From Candidatus Hydrogenedentota bacterium (lineage in GTDB: Bacteria; Hydrogenedentota; Hydrogenedentia; Hydrogenedentales; GCA-2746185), in assembly GCA_046583315.1 (NCBI GenBank), contig JAYGCN010000052.1, positions 1 through 64,000 of the forward strand: a DNA stretch of 64,000 nucleotides. Direction: 5' to 3'. Under the pieces are notes generated by a model. That model was not told the DNA's origin, ran no database searches, and worked only from the letters and a program-made list of their open reading frames with translations. A program made the position numbers and the translations under genes. Of the stretch, positions 43,338 through 64,000 are shown piece after piece; position 1 is the first letter of the stretch; each line of letters starts with the position of its first letter.

Positions 43338-43831
43338 TACAGCTCTCCATCCTCAGGTGCATTCAGCCAAATTGTTGGCGTACCACTGTCAGGTGCATTC
43401 AGCCAAATTGTTGGCGTACCACTGTCGGTGTAGAGCAATTCTGCCGACGCACCATCAATGTCCGTTGAGTAGGTTTCAACAATCGTGTCCGCCGCAACGG
43501 GAGCGGGGCCTTCGGAGGTAATGGTCATCATGGACACGGCCACAATGACGGCTGCCGCTGAAACGGATGCCATGGCCCATAATCCGGCGTGGCGACGTTT
43601 GGGCGCATGTACCCCCTCAGAGATTCCCGCGAGAAAAGCCGGCATCTGTGCATCGTCGATGGTGGGTGTTTCAGGAAGTGCTTCGAGCGATGCACGGCAG
43701 GTCTTCATAAAAGTGAGATGTTTCTGACAGGTTGTGCAGTGTTCAATATGCGATTCGAGTTGTGGGTCATTCGGCTGTTCCCCGTCGAACCAGCGTTCCA
43801 CATCGTTTTCGTGTGTACATGTCGATTTCAT
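43337..43831 (-). CDS. Zinc-binding (ZAS, HxxxCxxC) membrane anti-sigma factor
   Basis: HIEHCTTC, one TM helix, directly after the sigma gene. Confidence 0.8.
   Translation of the reverse strand: MKSTCTHENDVERWFDGEQPNDPQLESHIEHCTTCQKHLTFMKTCRASLEALPETPTIDDAQMPAFLAGISEGVHAPKRRHAGLWAMASVSAAAVIVAVSMMTITSEGPAPVAADTIVETYSTDIDGASAELLYTDSGTPTIWLNAPDSGTPTIWLNAPEDGEL
43353..43426. repeat. Perfect 36-bp tandem duplication
   Basis: TCAGGTGCATTCAGCCAAATTGTTGGCGTACCACTG x2, encoding DSGTPTIWLNAP twice. Confidence 0.95.
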
Positions 43832-52984: not shown

Positions 52985-53259
52985 ACGCGAAGGGCAAGGG
53001 TCTCTCACCGCGGAGAGTCTCTCATCTGGTACCTACAGCAATCACGAGTGGTGGCTTTGAATTGTTCGACCGCCTTCTGCGTGATTTTTATTTTTATCGT
53101 TTACCCCGGATTCGTTCGAGGCTATTATTGTTTGACGCATTCCGGGTCGACTGGCAAATTTCATGTTAAAAGTCTTTGCTTCTTTTACCCTTTGCGCCTT
53201 TGCGTTGAGGCAATTTGCATTTAGTCCTATCTGCGTGTATCCGTGTTCATCTGCGGCTA
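52984..53259. repeat. Cluster of repeat-family arms after marR
   Basis: AACGCGAAGGGCAAGG (52984), TCACCGCGGAGA (53005), CTTTGCGCCTTTGCGTT (~53190), ATCTGCGTGTATCCGTGTTCATCTGCGG (53229). Confidence 0.65.
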
Positions 53260-57507: not shown

Positions 57508-58332
57508 ATGTCAGGACGTTACGTCGATCTCCACATGCACACGACCTTTTCTGACGGGGCCGACATCCCTTCAGTCGTCGTTGAGCGTGCCAGCAGCCTG
57601 GGCTTCAGTGCCATCGCGATTACCGATCACGATACCCTCACCGGATTGCCGGATGCACGGGTAGCCGCCGACGACGCGGGAATTGAGCTTCTGCCCGGGG
57701 TAGAAGTGAGTTCGCGATACGGCAAGATGGAAGTGCACATCCTTGGCCTCGGCGTGGACCCGACCGATGCCGAACTCACCGAGTCGCTCGCCGTGATGGC
57801 CAAAGAACGTGCGCACCGCGCCGAAGCGATCGTCGAGAAACTGAATGCCCTTGATGTTCCCGTCGATTATGAATCAATCCGCACACGCGTGGGCAAAGGC
57901 GTCATCGGGCGCATGCATATCGCGCAAGATATCGTGTCCCTCGGACATGCCGATACGATCCAGGGCGCCTTCGATAAATACATCAAAGCTGGACGCCCAG
58001 CCTACGTACCGAAAAAGGCGATGACCTGCGAAGATGCCGTCGAATCCATCCACAAAGCAGGAGGACTCGCCTTCGTCGCGCATCCCTGCATCGGAAAAAC
58101 ACGCTCGATCCTAGACCAGTTACTGCGACTCCCCTTCGACGGCATCGAAGTCTTCCACTCCCGCCACACACCAGGACACATCGCCGACCTGAAGGCACTC
58201 GCAGAAGATCGCGGCCTGTTAATCAGCGGAGGCTCCGATTGCCACGGCTCCATAAAAGGCGACTCGCCACTCATGGGGAAAATTCGACTCGCGTGGGAAC
58301 ACTACGAGGCAATCCAGGGACGTCTGACTTAA
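57508..58332 (+). CDS. PHP-domain phosphoesterase
   Basis: DLHMHTTFSDG, ITDHD, GRMHIA, AHP, GGSDCHG. Confidence 0.9.
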   Translation: MSGRYVDLHMHTTFSDGADIPSVVVERASSLGFSAIAITDHDTLTGLPDARVAADDAGIELLPGVEVSSRYGKMEVHILGLGVDPTDAELTESLAVMAKERAHRAEAIVEKLNALDVPVDYESIRTRVGKGVIGRMHIAQDIVSLGHADTIQGAFDKYIKAGRPAYVPKKAMTCEDAVESIHKAGGLAFVAHPCIGKTRSILDQLLRLPFDGIEVFHSRHTPGHIADLKALAEDRGLLISGGSDCHGSIKGDSPLMGKIRLAWEHYEAIQGRLT

Positions 58333-58343
58333 CGAACCATTTG

Positions 58344-58870
58344 CACCGCGGAGGACTTCTACTCCAATAGGTCATCATCCAGGTACAGCGCACACTTGTT
58401 TAATGCTTCTTCGACCTCGGGACACTTTGCGCAATCGATGGTCAGCAATACGTAGTCCACGAAGCTTAAGTCATCAAAGGTTGCACAGTTGACGAAGTAG
58501 AACGCGACATCTTTTGGCTACTCAACTTTATGCCAAGTGGTCATTACGAGTGGGTAATTCTCGTGAAGATCGCCGTTCTTGTCGATGTTGCTTCCAATAT
58601 TTTTCTCGTCCGTCATATCATGCCAAAGTTCACAATTCGAGCCGCCGCATACGACCGAGCGACACCCCTTTCGTAAGATCTCGCCGACAATGTAGTCAAT
58701 TTGCTCGACAGAAAAGTTGCTGTCACAATCCTAGATCATGCACGCGAACGGATTGCCGACATCGAGCAGAGCAATGTCATCGGGATGAGAAACGTATTGG
58801 TGCCAATAGCGCCGTCCCTCATTTTCTACAATAATTTTCATATTTAATTCTCCGCGCCTCCGCGGTGAAA
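58344..58870. mobile_element. Inverted-repeat-flanked cargo cassette A
   Basis: CACCGCGGAGG (58344-58354) and TTCTCCGCGCCTCCGCGGTGAAA (58848-58870) bracket one AT-rich pseudogene. Mobility is inferred. Confidence 0.5.
58359..58841 (-). pseudogene. Cargo gene (160 codons) with two in-frame TAG codons; uncharacterised family with GC..VCGG..CELWHD..VMTTWH motif
   Basis: Manual translation MKIIVENEGRRYW...FACMI*DCD...KGCRSVVCGGSNCELWHDMTDE...VMTTWHKVE*PKDVAFYFVNC...DLLE*; TAG at 58731-58733 and 58518-58520. Confidence 0.75.
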
Positions 58871-58877
58871 TGCGGTT

Positions 58878-60239
58878 CTACTTCAGCTCGTTAAACTTGT
58901 CTTCGATTAGTTTGCGAATTTCCTTGAGGCGTTCCTTCGTTTCTGCTTCACACCGCATGACGATCATGGGGGAGGTGTTGGATACGCGGAGCAGGCCCCA
59001 GCCGTCGGGGAACTCAATGCGTGCGCCGTCGATCGTGTTGACGTCGTAACCTTCTTTCAGGAAAAACGCCGTTGCTTTCTCCACGATCTTGAATTTCTTT
59101 TTGTCCGTTGTTTCCAGTCGAATTTCGTCCGTAACGAAGGTTTTCGGCAGGGACTCGAGGTGTTTATGGAAGGGTCTGTGGCTGGCTGCGATGATTTCCA
59201 TGAGGCGTGCCGCCGCGTAGATGGCGCAATCGAAGCCGTACCAGCGGTGTTTGAAGAAAATATGGCCGCTCATTTCGCCGCCGATGGCCGCGTTGTTCTT
59301 GACCATACAATCTTTGATGAGCGAGTGGCCCGCTTTATACATGATTGGGTTGCCGCCATTTTTTGCGATATCCTCGTACATCGTGCGCGAACACTTTACT
59401 TCGCCGACCACGGTCGCGCCTTTCACTTCTTTCAAAATCTGCCGCGCAAACAAAAGCAGTAGCATATCGCCTGCGATAAAATTTCCTTTGTCGTCCACCG
59501 CACCGATTCGATCGGCATCGCCATCAAAACCGATGCCCAAGTCAGCCTTCTCTTCCTTGACCGTACTCACGAGCTTCTTGAGGGTCTTCGGTAGCGTGGG
59601 ATCGGGATGATGATTCGGAAAGTTGCCGTCCACCTTGCAATACAGCTCAACCACGTCGCAGCCCATCGCGCGAAACAGATCAACTCCGACTTTTCCACCA
59701 ACGCCGTTACCCGCATCCACTACAACCTTCAGCTTCCGCTTCAGTTTAATGCCCCGAAGAATTTTCTGTTGGTACTTCGGAATAATGTTCATACGCGTAA
59801 TCGTAACCGGTTTTTTGGCGACAGGAAATGCTCCTTTTTGAATGATCGCCTTAATCTTTTGAATTTCTTTACCGTGAATGGTGGATTTGCCCACGCCCAG
59901 TTTCAATCCGTTGTATTCCTTCGGATTGTGCGAGCCCGTAATCATCACTCCGCCGTCCACAGGTAGATGAAACAGGCCGAAATAGGTGACGCCCGTGCTG
60001 ACTTCGCCAATATCGATGACGTTCATGCCCACAGAGGTCAGACCGTCGATGAGCGCGTTGGCGAATCCCTTCGACGTAAGCCGTCCATCCCGTCCGACCA
60101 CCATACAATTGTGTTTTTTCTTGCGGCGCATATAAACGGCAAGGGCTTTTCCGACCAATTCGACGATTTCTTCCGTCAATTCGTCGCCGGCAATGCCGCG
60201 GATGTCGTATTCTCTAAAAATGTTGTCTGGCAACTGCAT
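58878..60239 (-). CDS. Phosphomannomutase/phosphoglucomutase
   Basis: FREYDIRG, ITGSHNP, FDGDADR, GEMSGH, RVSNT. Confidence 0.95.
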   Translation of the reverse strand: MQLPDNIFREYDIRGIAGDELTEEIVELVGKALAVYMRRKKKHNCMVVGRDGRLTSKGFANALIDGLTSVGMNVIDIGEVSTGVTYFGLFHLPVDGGVMITGSHNPKEYNGLKLGVGKSTIHGKEIQKIKAIIQKGAFPVAKKPVTITRMNIIPKYQQKILRGIKLKRKLKVVVDAGNGVGGKVGVDLFRAMGCDVVELYCKVDGNFPNHHPDPTLPKTLKKLVSTVKEEKADLGIGFDGDADRIGAVDDKGNFIAGDMLLLLFARQILKEVKGATVVGEVKCSRTMYEDIAKNGGNPIMYKAGHSLIKDCMVKNNAAIGGEMSGHIFFKHRWYGFDCAIYAAARLMEIIAASHRPFHKHLESLPKTFVTDEIRLETTDKKKFKIVEKATAFFLKEGYDVNTIDGARIEFPDGWGLLRVSNTSPMIVMRCEAETKERLKEIRKLIEDKFNELK

Positions 60240-60419
60240 GGTGTTCTCCCCAAAAGGCTAATCAGGTGCGTATTGTAATGATTCAGAGTTGGAAAACCAA
60301 GAGATGGAAGGGCCGAGTGGGTCGTCAAGCCAGAGAACTGCGCATGAACAGACTTGACAGTGTACATGGAACCCGTCCATCAGTATACTCGAATCGTTCA
60401 TGAATGAAGGAAGCATACC

Positions 60420-61148
60420 ATGCCCATTACCGATACCGTGTGGAAATCAGAAGAAGTCGCATCCAAATATCTGCAAGGCGTGCGCGGCGCGATTCCGGGA
60501 GCCTTGTTGCAGCTCGAGGTCATGATGCGTTTGCTGGGCACGGGTGAACACACGATAGATAGCTTCCTTGATCTCGGATGCGGTGACGGTATTCTGGGAC
60601 AAACAATCCTCGCTGAGCATCCCGAGGCGCAGGGTGTGTTCGTCGATTTTTCCGAACCCATGATCGATGCGGCCCTCAAACGATTGGGAACTGACTCGAA
60701 GCATGCGTTTCATGCGATCGATTATGGGCAAGCAGGTTGGATCGATTCCCTTTCAGCCCCTTTCGACTGTATCGTGTCCGGATTTTCGATACATCACCAG
60801 CCGGACGAACGAAAGAAGGAAATCTACCAGGAACTTTTCGATGCGCTCGCGCCTGGAGGCTGGTTTATCAATATGGAACACGTTTTGTCCGCTACGAAAA
60901 CAGGTGAGACGGCGTTTCTGCAGCATCTCGTTGACAATATGTTCGCACTGGAGAAAGAATCCGGTGGTACGCGGTCGCGCGCGGAAATTCTTCATGCGAT
61001 GGAAAACAACGAAGACAGCCAAGCGAATATTTTGGCAAGAGTTGATGTGCAATGCGAATGGTTGTCGGCGATCGGTTTTCAGGAAGTCGATTGCTATTTC
61101 AAAATCTATGAGTTGGCCATTTTCGGGGGCGTTAAGCCTACCCAATAG
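60420..61148 (+). CDS. Class I SAM-dependent methyltransferase
   Basis: LDLGCGDG, VDFSEPM, SGFSIHH, LAPGGWFIN. Confidence 0.9.
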   Translation: MPITDTVWKSEEVASKYLQGVRGAIPGALLQLEVMMRLLGTGEHTIDSFLDLGCGDGILGQTILAEHPEAQGVFVDFSEPMIDAALKRLGTDSKHAFHAIDYGQAGWIDSLSAPFDCIVSGFSIHHQPDERKKEIYQELFDALAPGGWFINMEHVLSATKTGETAFLQHLVDNMFALEKESGGTRSRAEILHAMENNEDSQANILARVDVQCEWLSAIGFQEVDCYFKIYELAIFGGVKPTQ

Positions 61149-61163
61149 GGGAACGAATTCAGT

Positions 61164-61613
61164 ATGCGCGCGGTTATTCAACGGGTCAGTGAGTCATCGG
61201 TCACGGTCGATGGGTCTGTTATCGGTGAGATCGGCGTGGGATTCATGGTGCTGTTGGGCGTGTCCGATGACGATACCGAGCAGGACGCGGATGCCCTTGT
61301 GCAAAAAATCGTCGGCTTGCGCGTGTTCAATGACGACGACGGAAAGTTCAATCTGTCATTGATGGATGTGGGCGGGAGGGTGTTGCTCATTTCCCAGTTC
61401 ACATTGATGGGGGATTGCCGGAAGGGGCGCCGTCCATCATTTATCAGAGCCGCTCGCCCTGAACACGCGATTCCGTTGTATGAATCGGTCATTGCGGGTC
61501 TAAAACAGCGCGGCGTAACGGTTGCCAGCGGTGAATTCGGTGCGCACATGGACGTGCATCTCATCAATGATGGACCCGTGACCCTGCTCGTGGACAGTCG
61601 AAAGGAATTCTGA
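61164..61613 (+). CDS. dtd: D-aminoacyl-tRNA deacylase
   Basis: [26 protein letters not shown]. Confidence 0.96.
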
Positions 61614-61622
61614 CCAAAGGCG

Positions 61623-62597
61623 ATGAGCACCCCTGATGAGAATAGTCGCTTGCGAATCGTGGTCGCCGGGTCAGGCCGTCTCGGCATGGCCGTGCTGGAG
61701 CCACTACTCGATTCTGGATATGAGGTGGTTGCCGTCGTGCAGAACGGTCGTAAAGTGCCGCGGTGGGAGCGAAAGTTACTCGGACTTCAGGCGCGCATCA
61801 CACCGCGTATGCCTTCACCGTTGTGTGAAGCAGTGCGGCAGCGAATTCCAATTTATTGGTTGGAACATCTTGATGCTACGGAGATTAAATCGCTATGCGC
61901 GATGAAACCCGACCTGTTGATTACTTGTGGATTCAGCATCATTCTGCCGGAATCTGTTCTGTCTATCCCGCGCATCGGCTGTATCAATGTGCATACGGCC
62001 CTGTTGCCGAAACATCGAGGTCCAAATCCCTGCGCGTGGGTCGTGCACGACGGGGACGGAAAATCCGGCGTGACGATTCATGTTACGGAAACCGGAATCG
62101 ACACGGGGGCGGTGTTGGCACAGGAATCCTTTGATCTGTCGCCTACTGACACGAGCATGGATGTGTATCTTGCTTCGTGCGCCGTGACCGCTGGCATGAT
62201 TTCGGAAACGATTGCAGATATCGAAGCGAATGGTTTTGCGAACGCGCGTGTGCAGGACGAATCTGAGGCGACTTATGACAAGCGCTTCAATGATGAGCAG
62301 TCGCGCGTGGATTGGACGCAGTCCGCCGTGGCAATTGAACGATTGATACGCGCGGCGCATGCCTACGCTCCGGCCTGGTTCCAATTCGGCAAAACGCGCG
62401 TGCGTTTGGTGCAGGCTGAGGCGAAAATGGGTGGCCGTGATGTTGCACCAGGTGTGATTGTGGCCGTCGACCCCGAGCTCGTCGTCGGTACGGGCGACGG
62501 GACACTGACCCTGTACTCAACCTATACCGATCAACGCGGCGGCACACGATGGCCGGGCGCGTTCACGAAGCTGAAACCGGGCATGCGTCTGGAGTAA
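61623..62597 (+). CDS. Methionyl-tRNA formyltransferase-like protein
   Basis: INVHTALLPKHRGPNP, GVTIH, IDTG and an Fmt-like C-terminal domain. Confidence 0.8.
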   Translation: MSTPDENSRLRIVVAGSGRLGMAVLEPLLDSGYEVVAVVQNGRKVPRWERKLLGLQARITPRMPSPLCEAVRQRIPIYWLEHLDATEIKSLCAMKPDLLITCGFSIILPESVLSIPRIGCINVHTALLPKHRGPNPCAWVVHDGDGKSGVTIHVTETGIDTGAVLAQESFDLSPTDTSMDVYLASCAVTAGMISETIADIEANGFANARVQDESEATYDKRFNDEQSRVDWTQSAVAIERLIRAAHAYAPAWFQFGKTRVRLVQAEAKMGGRDVAPGVIVAVDPELVVGTGDGTLTLYSTYTDQRGGTRWPGAFTKLKPGMRLE

Positions 62598-62622
62598 GAT
62601 ACGCGCAGGGGGAAATACGCCG

Positions 62623-63252
62623 ATGGATGTCGAAATTCGCGAGTACCGTGACGAGGATGAGCAGAAATGGATGCGCGTCCACGCAGAAATCATGACGATA
62701 TCCCATTCCTGGAACTATTGCATACAGGAACGCCCCCCCTATGATGGCCACGAATCCACGCGACTCGTCGCGCTCGTGGACGGGAAGATTATTGGGTTGA
62801 CCGATACGCTTTACGATAACGAACCCGGCGAAATTTGTTTCAACAAAGAAACGCGCGGGGGTTATGTCACAGAGTTCGGTCGACTACCCGGATTCGCGGC
62901 GAAGGGACTCGGCATTCAGCTCATGCAAGCGACGATGGATCATGCGCACGCCAAGGGGATCGACCGCCTCGAATACTGGTCGCAGGATCGCAACGCACAA
63001 CGCTACTACATGAAACTCGGGCTGCCCGAAATCTCGCGCCATTATCGTTTCCGCATGCAAGCCCCGCAAGAGGTCGGCGACCACCTCCTCCAAGACGGCA
63101 TCGGAGTCGAATACATCTACGGCGTGTGCCAGCCCGAAGATTGGCCAGCCGTGAAAAAGAAATATGAAATCAAAATGGATCACCCACTAGAACCCCACCT
63201 GTGTATCGGCTACGCGATCGATGATTTCGAGAAACCGTTCCCGAAGGGCTAA
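62623..63252 (+). CDS. GNAT family N-acetyltransferase
   Basis: IREYR, GKIIG, AAKGLGIQLM, AQRYYMKLG. Confidence 0.82.
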   Translation: MDVEIREYRDEDEQKWMRVHAEIMTISHSWNYCIQERPPYDGHESTRLVALVDGKIIGLTDTLYDNEPGEICFNKETRGGYVTEFGRLPGFAAKGLGIQLMQATMDHAHAKGIDRLEYWSQDRNAQRYYMKLGLPEISRHYRFRMQAPQEVGDHLLQDGIGVEYIYGVCQPEDWPAVKKKYEIKMDHPLEPHLCIGYAIDDFEKPFPKG

Positions 63253-63264
63253 GGGCGAAGAGCA

Positions 63265-63868
63265 TTCACCGCGGAGGCGCGGAGAACGCGGAGGAAATTT
63301 GTGATAGATATCGAGTCTATACGAAATTTGCTGGCAAACGAACTCCGTAGCTGCGAATTCGGATATATATATCGCCCTAAGAGGGCGTTTTTGGATTTTT
63401 TCGAATAAATCGATGCAACGTACCCTAGATTTTGTCGATTTGCTTCGGAAACCTCCATCGAACTTTTACATTTGTCATGACAACCCGGATCTGGATATTT
63501 TGAAAGAAGCGATTGATAATAAACAAATTTACCATTTAGGGGGAGAGGTTTATCGAATTTCCCACTCATTTGACACAAATTTATTCTACCGCTGTTTCTT
63601 TTTGTACTCAGATTCTTGGGCGTATTGGATTACTTCGGACTGTACTTTCGAAGGAAGCTTCGTTCGCTATGAAATGGAAATGGATGGGGATTATAGAAGA
63701 GGAACTAGCCCGTCGAGTGAATTTAGGCGAAATTGATGTTGCAGTTTGCGCGTACGGAGATGGTGTAGAAATGCACATAATAGTTAACAACAAGGCGGAG
63801 TAGCCTTATTTATTGTTGATGCGCCGACAGGTAATCCCTCTCCGCGCCCTCCGCGTCTCCGCGGTGAA
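63265..63868. mobile_element. Inverted-repeat-flanked cargo cassette B
   Basis: TTCACCGCGGAGGCGCGGAGAACGCGGAGG (63265-63294) and CTCTCCGCGCCCTCCGCGTCTCCGCGGTGAA (63838-63868) bracket AT-rich DNA. Mobility is inferred. Confidence 0.55.
63301..63803 (+). pseudogene. Fragmented AT-rich cargo gene of unknown function
   Basis: GTG at 63301 behind GGAGG (VIDIESIRNLLANEL...), continuing in shifted frames (63413..63736, then to TAG at 63801-63803). Confidence 0.5.
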
Positions 63869-63876
63869 GAAAGCCC

Positions 63877-63900
63877 TTCTTCGTGTTCTTCGTGGTGAAA
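63877..63900 (+). repeat. Additional repeat-family arm (TTCGTG type)
   Basis: TTCTTCGTGTTCTTCGTGGTGAAA. Confidence 0.6.
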
Positions 63901-63903
63901 AAG

Positions 63904-64000
63904 CTAAGCCAGCAAATCCTTCACGACCCGTCCATGCACATCCGTCAACCGGAATTGTCGGCCTTTGAGTTTGTAGTTGAGGCGTTCGTGGTCGATGCCC
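63904..64000 (-). CDS. DUF1501 (sulfatase-like) protein, C-terminal end (partial)
   Basis: Manual translation [31 protein letters not shown], the characteristic DUF1501 C-terminus. Confidence 0.8.

Follow-up and report, generated by a model that had tools for sequence, protein, structure and literature searches.

What brings two unrelated small genes between inverted copies of the same repeat, each in a gap between convergent host genes, is the question raised by the right end of this 64,000-nt window (the whole stretch of DNA analysed) from a Candidatus Hydrogenedentota bacterium. The original prediction saw in them a gene-capture system, in which the repeats act as handles that append foreign genes to host transcripts with a ready-made ribosome binding site (RBS). 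Much of the layout on which it was built is confirmed, and RBS supply as the function of the repeats is not supported.

Two decaying cassettes between host stop codons

As claimed, an identical 22-mer lies 3' of two host stop codons, at 58848-58869 on the minus strand and at 63265-63286 on the plus strand, where shuffles (n=100) lead to an expectation of 0. It starts 8 nt past the stop of a phosphomannomutase/phosphoglucomutase gene (PGM, 58878..60239, minus strand) and 12 nt past that of a GNAT acetyltransferase gene (62623..63252, plus strand). Both copies face outward and enclose a five-gene block of 4.4 kb, with PGM at its left end, GNAT at its right end, and methyltransferase, D-aminoacyl-tRNA deacylase and formyltransferase-like genes in between (60420..62597, plus strand). 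The host genes are indeed convergent at both cassettes: PGM faces a PHP-domain gene (57508..58332, plus strand), with 11 nt between its stop and the left arm's outer edge, and GNAT faces a DUF1501 gene on the minus strand, of which the window holds the 3' end (63904..64000; it continues to 65367 in the contig). The inverted partner copies are present in both, but the one in cassette 1 (58344..58354, plus strand) is only a single remaining 11-nt unit (CACCGCGGAGG), facing a main arm, the 22-mer, with two CGCGGAG units. The left arm of cassette 2 (63265..63294, plus strand) has three CGCGGAG units with GGAGG at its end, and its right arm (63840..63868, minus strand), also of three CGCGGAG units, is 29 nt long and 90% complementary to the left one. 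A second, outer array of the same arm family (63879..63895, minus strand; two CACGAAG units) lies 8 nt from the DUF1501 stop.

The cargoes are whole ORFs that occupy the interval from one host stop to the other; as predicted, they are unrelated and decayed. Cargo 1 (58359..58841, minus strand) is a full-length DUF7684 (PF24733) gene of 160 codons, in which codons 37 and 108 are nonsense codons; it starts 6 nt past the 22-mer and its 3' end, GAG TAG, is 4 nt from the partner arm. An intact 97% allele is on record, and the gene is known in three states: intact (P0154), as a shorter call in which the second stop is absent (P0004), and with both stops, here. Cargo 2 (63301..63803, plus strand) is an orphan of about 165 inferred codons, spread over three frames by two frameshifts, near the T-run 63396-63401 and near 63691; it also ends in GAG TAG, 36 nt from its partner arm. 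Cargo 2 is AT-rich as stated (GC 0.40) and cargo 1 only mildly so (0.46; genome 0.53).

For cargo 1, a single query against GTDB genomes gave 28 pattern matches, none of them confirmed, and plasmids (query P0002) did not yield it; locus L156, a match of the DUF7684 search, was dropped as spurious by eye. Since relatives of DUF7684 terminate in attC or attC-like sites (strict at L155, looser at L153 and L023), cargo 1 and integron cassettes may share a common gene pool. The TTAAAT found 5' of its start was considered as a remnant of an integron R' sequence and rejected, its TTA being arm sequence common to the C133 cassette. Cargo 2 had no homologue by word search with its 107-aa frame, in the Atlas or in plasmids, no DNA match in 135 genomes and none in Pfam, NCBIfam or PADLOC, all at the low sensitivity of searches with pieces of a gene.

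A dispersed repeat tied to a nuclease family

The arms consist of two to three tandem 7-nt units (CRCRRAK) and form a dispersed family of about 53-60 clusters in the genome; 72 arrays score there against 8 in the reversed genome used as control, so that they are no peculiarity of this window. Some arrays are single; others form inverted pairs, which may be empty, enclose a GxxExxY PD-(D/E)XK gene or, rarely, enclose a foreign gene about as long. Their usual place is directly 3' of a stop codon. Random orientation, which would have spoken against the original prediction, is not borne out by the close pairs of the genome-wide scan, which face inward, and GC is lower on the inner side of the arms (0.489 versus 0.541 outside; n=46, p=5.5e-6). 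The 22-mer is found in many phyla, mostly as an empty hairpin at the outside loci (42/80, against five with inverted arrays upstream). The arms pair into a long predicted RNA stem (z = -5.7), and for the main arm of cassette 1 a 5-bp GC self-hairpin is predicted, in which the GG of the putative RBS takes part. Viral contigs held no copy of the 22-mer, an Rfam search of the cassettes had no match, and promoter and terminator predictions were no more frequent than by chance.

Unrelated small foreign genes are bracketed by arms both here and in relatives. This genome has five arm-linked foreign genes, namely the two window cargoes and those of the C174, C346 and C133 cassettes, and all of them look broken. 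As a route of gene gain the arms would be minor, as only 6 of the 192 low-GC islands carry one. The 3' junctions are tight (2-6 nt) in cassette 1, C174, C346 and L187, and six of eight cargo-type genes end in GAG-stop, against a base rate of 4%. An arm relic is disfavored as the source of this enrichment, since the C346 cargo has a homologue that terminates at the same residue.

GxxExxY (PF13366) is a large family to which no function has been assigned. An association of such repeats with its genes had been put forward in the original prediction, and it holds: 40 of the 41 GxxExxY genes tested have an array no more than 170 nt away, compared with 115 of 3359 ordinary ORFs. Four-helix-bundle genes, also named there, were not found in this genome (PF05635, 0 genes). 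The gene between the arms in the nuclease form is PF13366/TIGR04256, a family whose nuclease activity is given as unknown (PMC3424549). Within this phylum, 115 of 135 genomes carry GxxExxY, which also lies inside seven of the nine gene-sized inward pairs of relatives. Among the 115 genomes that have the gene, 58 show the strict arm pattern, as do 2 of the 20 that lack it, a co-occurrence that is overstated because kin share labels and nine of the 20 nuclease-free genomes are of one genus. The arm class also tracks the nuclease tree, on which one starred branch (99/93) splits 28 -AG rows from 13 others (11 with -AT or -AA units, one -AG, one with none scored), with 13 label changes against 20.2 when shuffled; arms in -GAG flank L186, L189-L192 and L195. 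In this assembly (96.7% complete), the single GxxExxY gene is broken and has -AT arms. The matching -AG nuclease being absent from it, the window cassettes would be orphans.

Known systems and the preferred reading

Integron cassettes are single promoterless ORFs with tight ends, which the present cassettes resemble; however, integrons have one directional site per gene and here the arms are inverted. The attC pattern (RYYYAAC ... GTTRRRY), present at L155, is found at neither cassette, and no GTAG-footed palindrome occurs, in agreement with the claim that the repeats match neither attC nor GTAG-type REPs. The claimed lack of a mobile enzyme was extended to the 96.7%-complete assembly, in which no IntI above cut-off was found, its two tyrosine recombinases being far below that of TIGR02249, and no RAYT; nor was a cognate transposase found by a search covering Y1. 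Inverted ends around a passenger are also known from MITEs with passenger genes and from ORF-bearing rRNA intervening sequences, and the predicted RNA stem adds to this likeness, but here the arms are unit arrays and the sites are mRNA gaps.

The closest parallels come from two other elements. In the Ssn system (PMC11893778), a small single-domain GIY-YIG nuclease gene lies between inverted short NTS (SRM) repeats, which are also dispersed and extragenic around variable genes, and NTS-gene-NTS layouts affect the recombination of incoming DNA. The likeness is that of a small nuclease gene flanked by inverted, dispersed, extragenic short repeats. By comparison, the putative nuclease here is a PD-(D/E)XK GxxExxY protein, the arm is a tandem of 7-nt units, and whole foreign ORFs occupy the slot. 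REPINs (PMC3116915) are extragenic inverted doublets that form hairpins, occur with singles and tandem clusters and go with one nuclease gene family, all of which recalls the arms; the passages searched mention neither "cargo" nor "open reading frame" for them. They differ in that this genome lacks the RAYT Y1 HUH enzyme (PF01797, 0 matches) and, as noted, the palindrome. No description of a family of nuclease plus arms was found in the literature searched.

We lean towards the view that each cassette is a REPIN/Ssn-like hairpin element in cargo-filled form, whose nuclease slot would have been loaded with a foreign gene that is now decaying. In this model, the arms, probably in the form of single-stranded hairpins, would be recognized by a GxxExxY nuclease whose -AG clade matches them and which would cut there or close by, in the way of Ssn with NTS. 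Repair could then take the arms as short homology handles, and the loop or the nuclease ORF would give way to a small gene of the mobile pool, for which a transposase would be unnecessary. The element would be selfish or domesticated, with loading as its by-product, rather than an expression system. That a repeat usually empty or nuclease-bearing here holds foreign genes suggests an undescribed route for the uptake of single genes. More tentatively, arms and GxxExxY might constitute a transposase-free and integrase-free capture system across many phyla, in which the nuclease opens the hairpin slot, a GAG-stop (GAGTAR) junction sets the 3' end of the ORF, which would explain ORF-flush capture, and the arms perhaps serve as inversion points.

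Alternative origins and site history

It can be argued, with less probability, that the bracketing is incidental: arms would enter post-stop gaps singly, foreign genes would reach the same tolerant gaps by other means, and an inward pair would result either from two separate events or from the later splitting of an empty hairpin by an unrelated insertion. Single arms are common (35 of 59 further sampled arms have no partner within 1.3 kb), and 30 of 80 arms at outside loci lie within 40 nt past a same-strand stop, against 9 of 80 in a rough control. None of seven other DUF7684 loci has these arms, and 186 of the 192 low-GC islands are armless. The menB-menA slot contains armless genes in the same-genus sister genome G001 (a foreign low-GC gene) and in G006 (another gene), and in relatives repeats of other types are found both there and in the gap 3' of PGM. 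In favor of the loaded-hairpin reading, the same slot has arms and a DUF3885 gene here and an empty hairpin in G008. The DUF3885 gene of G001 was ruled out as the same cassette, without a tblastn match. Against incidental bracketing, neighboring pairs less than 3 kb apart face inward in six of six cases, the junctions of cassette 1, 4-6 nt from the ORF, are too tight for attC or IS ends, the cargoes have the size of the nuclease slot, and independent events leave the common GAG-stop end unexplained.

A dedicated system that captures genes, appends them to host transcripts and supplies their RBS is improbable. The claimed spacing is exact, with GGAG 8 nt before the ATG of cargo 1 (58841), its true start, and GGAGG 6 nt before the GTG of cargo 2 (63301), its probable start. 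Locus L324 of G073 also has it right, although its being bounded by this arm at one end only, and by a repeat of another type at the opposite end, speaks against the loaded-hairpin reading. Both window cargoes are co-directional with the upstream host gene, and the intact cargo 1 allele fits such a system. But this geometry fits only two of the five cargoes in the genome and 2 of 80 outside loci, the cargoes of C174, C346 and C133 starting about 40-75 nt from the arm, and the host gene before those of C133 and C346 is divergent. The GG of the putative RBS is predicted to be paired (probability of being unpaired 0.01 for cassette 1 and 0-0.27 for the complete RNA of cassette 2), and all five cargoes look broken. 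The spacing equals that of the native nuclease cassette, where arm and purine tail stand at the gene start, so that any gene in that slot inherits SD-like spacing. Of the capture-handle proposal, the oriented arms, the low-GC inner side and the bracketing of unrelated genes are supported, and the RBS purpose is not.

It is similarly doubtful, although compatible with the loaded-hairpin reading, that the 22-mers are the ends of a 4.4-kb inversion from PGM to GNAT whose cassettes swapped partners or arose at the breakpoints: the 22-mer occurs three times in the genome, two copies being 4.4 kb apart, only 14 of 2556 arm pairs share at least 22 nt, the rib-PHP block faces GNAT in G006, G008 and G012 and PGM here, and neither window junction is conserved in the relatives examined, but G001 has other neighbors at both block ends, which indicates a labile gene order and shows no single inversion, no opposite-strand arm joint is among the joints listed from four runs, and the C174 and C202 cassettes sit between conserved neighbors. 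For neither window site could a clear empty allele be established, and the relatives examined have no orthologous empty sites because their neighbor genes differ. An arm-to-arm joint from run X3 (63297-63848) does not suffice to prove an empty allele, as its left flank, limited by bin depth, is at most about 77 nt, 33 of them arm, and it may come from another locus. Beyond this ambiguous joint, from the contigs of the four runs, no cut, circle or excision was observed.

For the GxxExxY/PF13366 family, the arms provide a concrete candidate substrate, and the match of clade to arm predicts nuclease specificity. If loaded forms arise via the nuclease, they would represent single-gene acquisition without integrase or transposase, and small sequence-specific nucleases might be obtained from them, as has been the case with Ssn. 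Should the bracketing be a by-product, the cassettes would still mark insertion-tolerant gaps cleanly.

Cassettes and cargo genes

The identical 22-mer of the original prediction is present at two sites, 58848-58869 (minus strand) and 63265-63286 (plus strand), is absent from shuffled sequence, and lies at the spacing described there from host stops and cargo starts. Inverted partner arms are also present at both cassettes, although that of cassette 1 (arms 58344-58354 and 58848-58869 around cargo 1, 58359..58841, minus strand) amounts to one unit only; in cassette 2 (arms 63265-63294 and 63840-63868 around cargo 2, 63301..63803, plus strand) an inverted copy of the 22-mer with three mismatches occupies 63847-63868. 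The adjoining host genes are PHP, PGM/PMM, GNAT and DUF1501, and the cargo, the foreign gene between the arms, has a GC content of 0.46 (cargo 1) or 0.40 (cargo 2) against 0.53 for the genome. Cargo 1 is covered by contigs from three runs of three studies, two of which cross the PGM junction, and the junction between GNAT and cargo 2 is covered in two runs. Because these contigs span cargo 1 and the junctions, the cassettes are not assembly artefacts. Elsewhere in the window, 43353-43424 is a perfect 36-nt tandem duplication.

With its two TAG codons read as X, cargo 1 encodes a full-length DUF7684 protein (PF24733, E 5e-17), whose start and end both align with its relatives. Its decay is recent, since an intact 160-aa protein of 97% identity is on record, as is an 85-aa call that lacks the second stop. 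The coding sequence of cargo 2 is spread over three frames, with indels in run X4 at 63395 and 63691, the latter favouring the C-terminal frame that ends at 63803, and none of the searches made gave a homologue. The other loaded sites of this genome carry a frameshifted DUF3885 gene (C174), a membrane protein with a homologue at 56% (C346), an SMI1/KNR4 gene whose partner arm lies past the contig end (C133) and the sole GxxExxY nuclease gene of the genome, which has an internal stop (C202, 21697-22140). At 7 other DUF7684 loci these arms were never found; one has a strict attC (L155) and two have attC-like ends (L153 and L023), the gene of L023 (G108:C20:152650-153750) lying inside inverted repeats of another family. 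Therefore, the DUF7684 cargo looks drawn from a general pool of small mobile genes.

The arm family and GxxExxY nucleases

The arms are arrays of tandem 7-nt CRCRRAK units, classed as -AG, -AT or -AA by unit ending, which number 72 in the genome against 8 in the reversed genome and form 60 clusters, or 53 under a stricter filter. They are oriented rather than random, as all six neighbouring pairs closer than 3 kb face inward. GC is lower on the inner side of arms than on the outer (0.489 and 0.541, n=46); low-GC islands make up 3.6% of the genome yet are touched by 9 of the 53 clusters, and only 6 of 192 such islands have an arm. The exact 22-mer is present in many phyla, in at least 118 outside stretches, of which the 80 with DNA were analysed: 42 are empty hairpins, 30 have no partner within 1.3 kb, four have a far partner (also four in the upstream control) and four are too short. 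Nine relatives have 60 further arms for which no obvious partner was listed. The positions of 59 of these were established: 35 are single, nine empty and nine short, and six have a far partner, with a low-GC gene clearly between the arms in one of the six (L315). Within the window, an element of the family without cargo gene stands at 53006-53256, upstream of the riboflavin operon, with two minus-strand arrays (CGCAGAT-type and CGCAAAG) facing a single CACCGCGGAG about 170 nt off. Regular, BIME-like arm arrays occur at L208 (G114:C193:9000-11500) and L199 (G052:C138), where the period is close to 242 and 135 nt, respectively. At L083, low-GC DNA that carries the gene of an SfiI-family restriction enzyme comes after the 22-mer.

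The link to GxxExxY genes (PF13366) is borne out: arrays lie at most 170 nt away at 40 of 41 GxxExxY rows (30 from the family search and 11 via their arms, with one duplicate), compared with 115 of 3359 ordinary ORFs. Genomes with such a gene show the strict arm pattern in 58/115 cases and genomes without it in 2/20, nine of those 20 being of one genus. A tree branch (support 99/93) sets 28 rows with -AG units apart from 13 others, of which 11 have -AT or -AA units, one has -AG and one is unscored; this suggests, but falls short of proving, that proteins and arm class co-evolve, because kin share labels. GxxExxY genes also lie inside seven of nine gene-sized inward pairs picked from relatives. 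The remaining two hold a toxin-antitoxin-like MNT and HepT-like pair flush inside the arms (L187, G054:C255) and a 1.4-kb stretch with a sigma-70 region 4 protein (L207, G087:C258:906-2393), possibly a captured viral piece; a weak fusellovirus VP2-like match at L207 (E 0.001) is below the cut-off. At L194 (G031:C178) a toxin-antitoxin-like MazE and PIN pair lies between two arms of the same direction, and one genome, G130, has at least 30 GxxExxY matches, far more than the rest of the phylum. The window arms are of -AG class and the sole, broken nuclease of this genome has -AT arms, so that no cognate enzyme was found for them; RAYT, IntI and PF05635 genes were looked for in the genome and not found.

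Same-site comparisons

The menB-menA gap (names assigned by reading of the sequences) holds arms and DUF3885 in this genome. At this site G008 has an empty -AT hairpin, the same-genus relative G001 a different, armless low-GC gene, G006 a GNAT gene, and both G003 and G012 other repeats. A low-GC DUF3885 gene unrelated to that of this genome follows seemingly eroded arm units at L277 (G001:C265:5250-6050). The C202 nuclease cassette (G000:C202:21697-22140; L261, L263, L262), whose start codon lies within the arm, occupies the same orthologous site in G006 and G008, which makes three genera with this genome, whereas in G001 it is eroded; this would reflect either old vertical inheritance or repeated homing.

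For the window cassettes, no relative examined has the same neighbour pair: PHP stands opposite GNAT in G006, G008 and G012, and the arrangement in G001 differs again. Two of the three exact 22-mers of the genome face outward around the PGM-GNAT block, and an inversion of this block between them is possible. The gap after the PGM stop is a general hot spot; different relatives (L004, L010, L012, L015 and L018) have palindromic repeats of different types there or, in place of them, a small gene pair. In one contig of run X3 the two cassette 2 arms are joined across 22 letters; as the left flank of this joint reaches no further than about 77 nt, it may be another locus.

Putative translation signal and proposed cargo loading

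The proposal that the arm serves to supply the cargo RBS is not supported: the spacing fits both window cargoes (and L324) but not those of C174, C346 and C133, and only 2/80 outside loci. The 22-mer is predicted to fold on itself; the GG of the putative site in cassette 1 is unpaired with a predicted probability of 0.01. In cassette 2 the GGAGG is predicted to lie inside an arm-to-arm stem of the full RNA (z -5.7) and to be partly open in the nascent RNA. In nuclease cassettes, the last arm unit and a purine tail come ahead of the gene start, so that any gene in the slot inherits SD-like spacing. We read the RBS-like spacing as inherited architecture of a putative translation site.

An end in GAG TAA or GAG TAG, noticed post hoc, is common to all four cargoes that lie between arms in this genome; GAG is the last codon of 135/3218 ORFs, 2/77 low-GC ORFs and 0/30 nuclease genes. 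Among cargo-type genes seen later, the armless gene of G001 and L324 share this end and L315 does not, nor does the earlier-seen L187, giving 6/8 overall in a small sample that includes the armless case. Because the end of the C346 cargo is native to its protein family, a capture step may prefer a GAG-stop motif.

This hairpin element is not an integron. A search of the open literature gave no description of nuclease-plus-arms elements. The element would work like Ssn/NTS (PMC11893778) or REPIN/RAYT (PMC3116915), but the enzyme of neither system was found with it. The best supported reading is that the cassettes are cargo-filled, decaying forms of a hairpin element associated with GxxExxY nucleases, into which cargo would be loaded by cut-and-repair at the arms.
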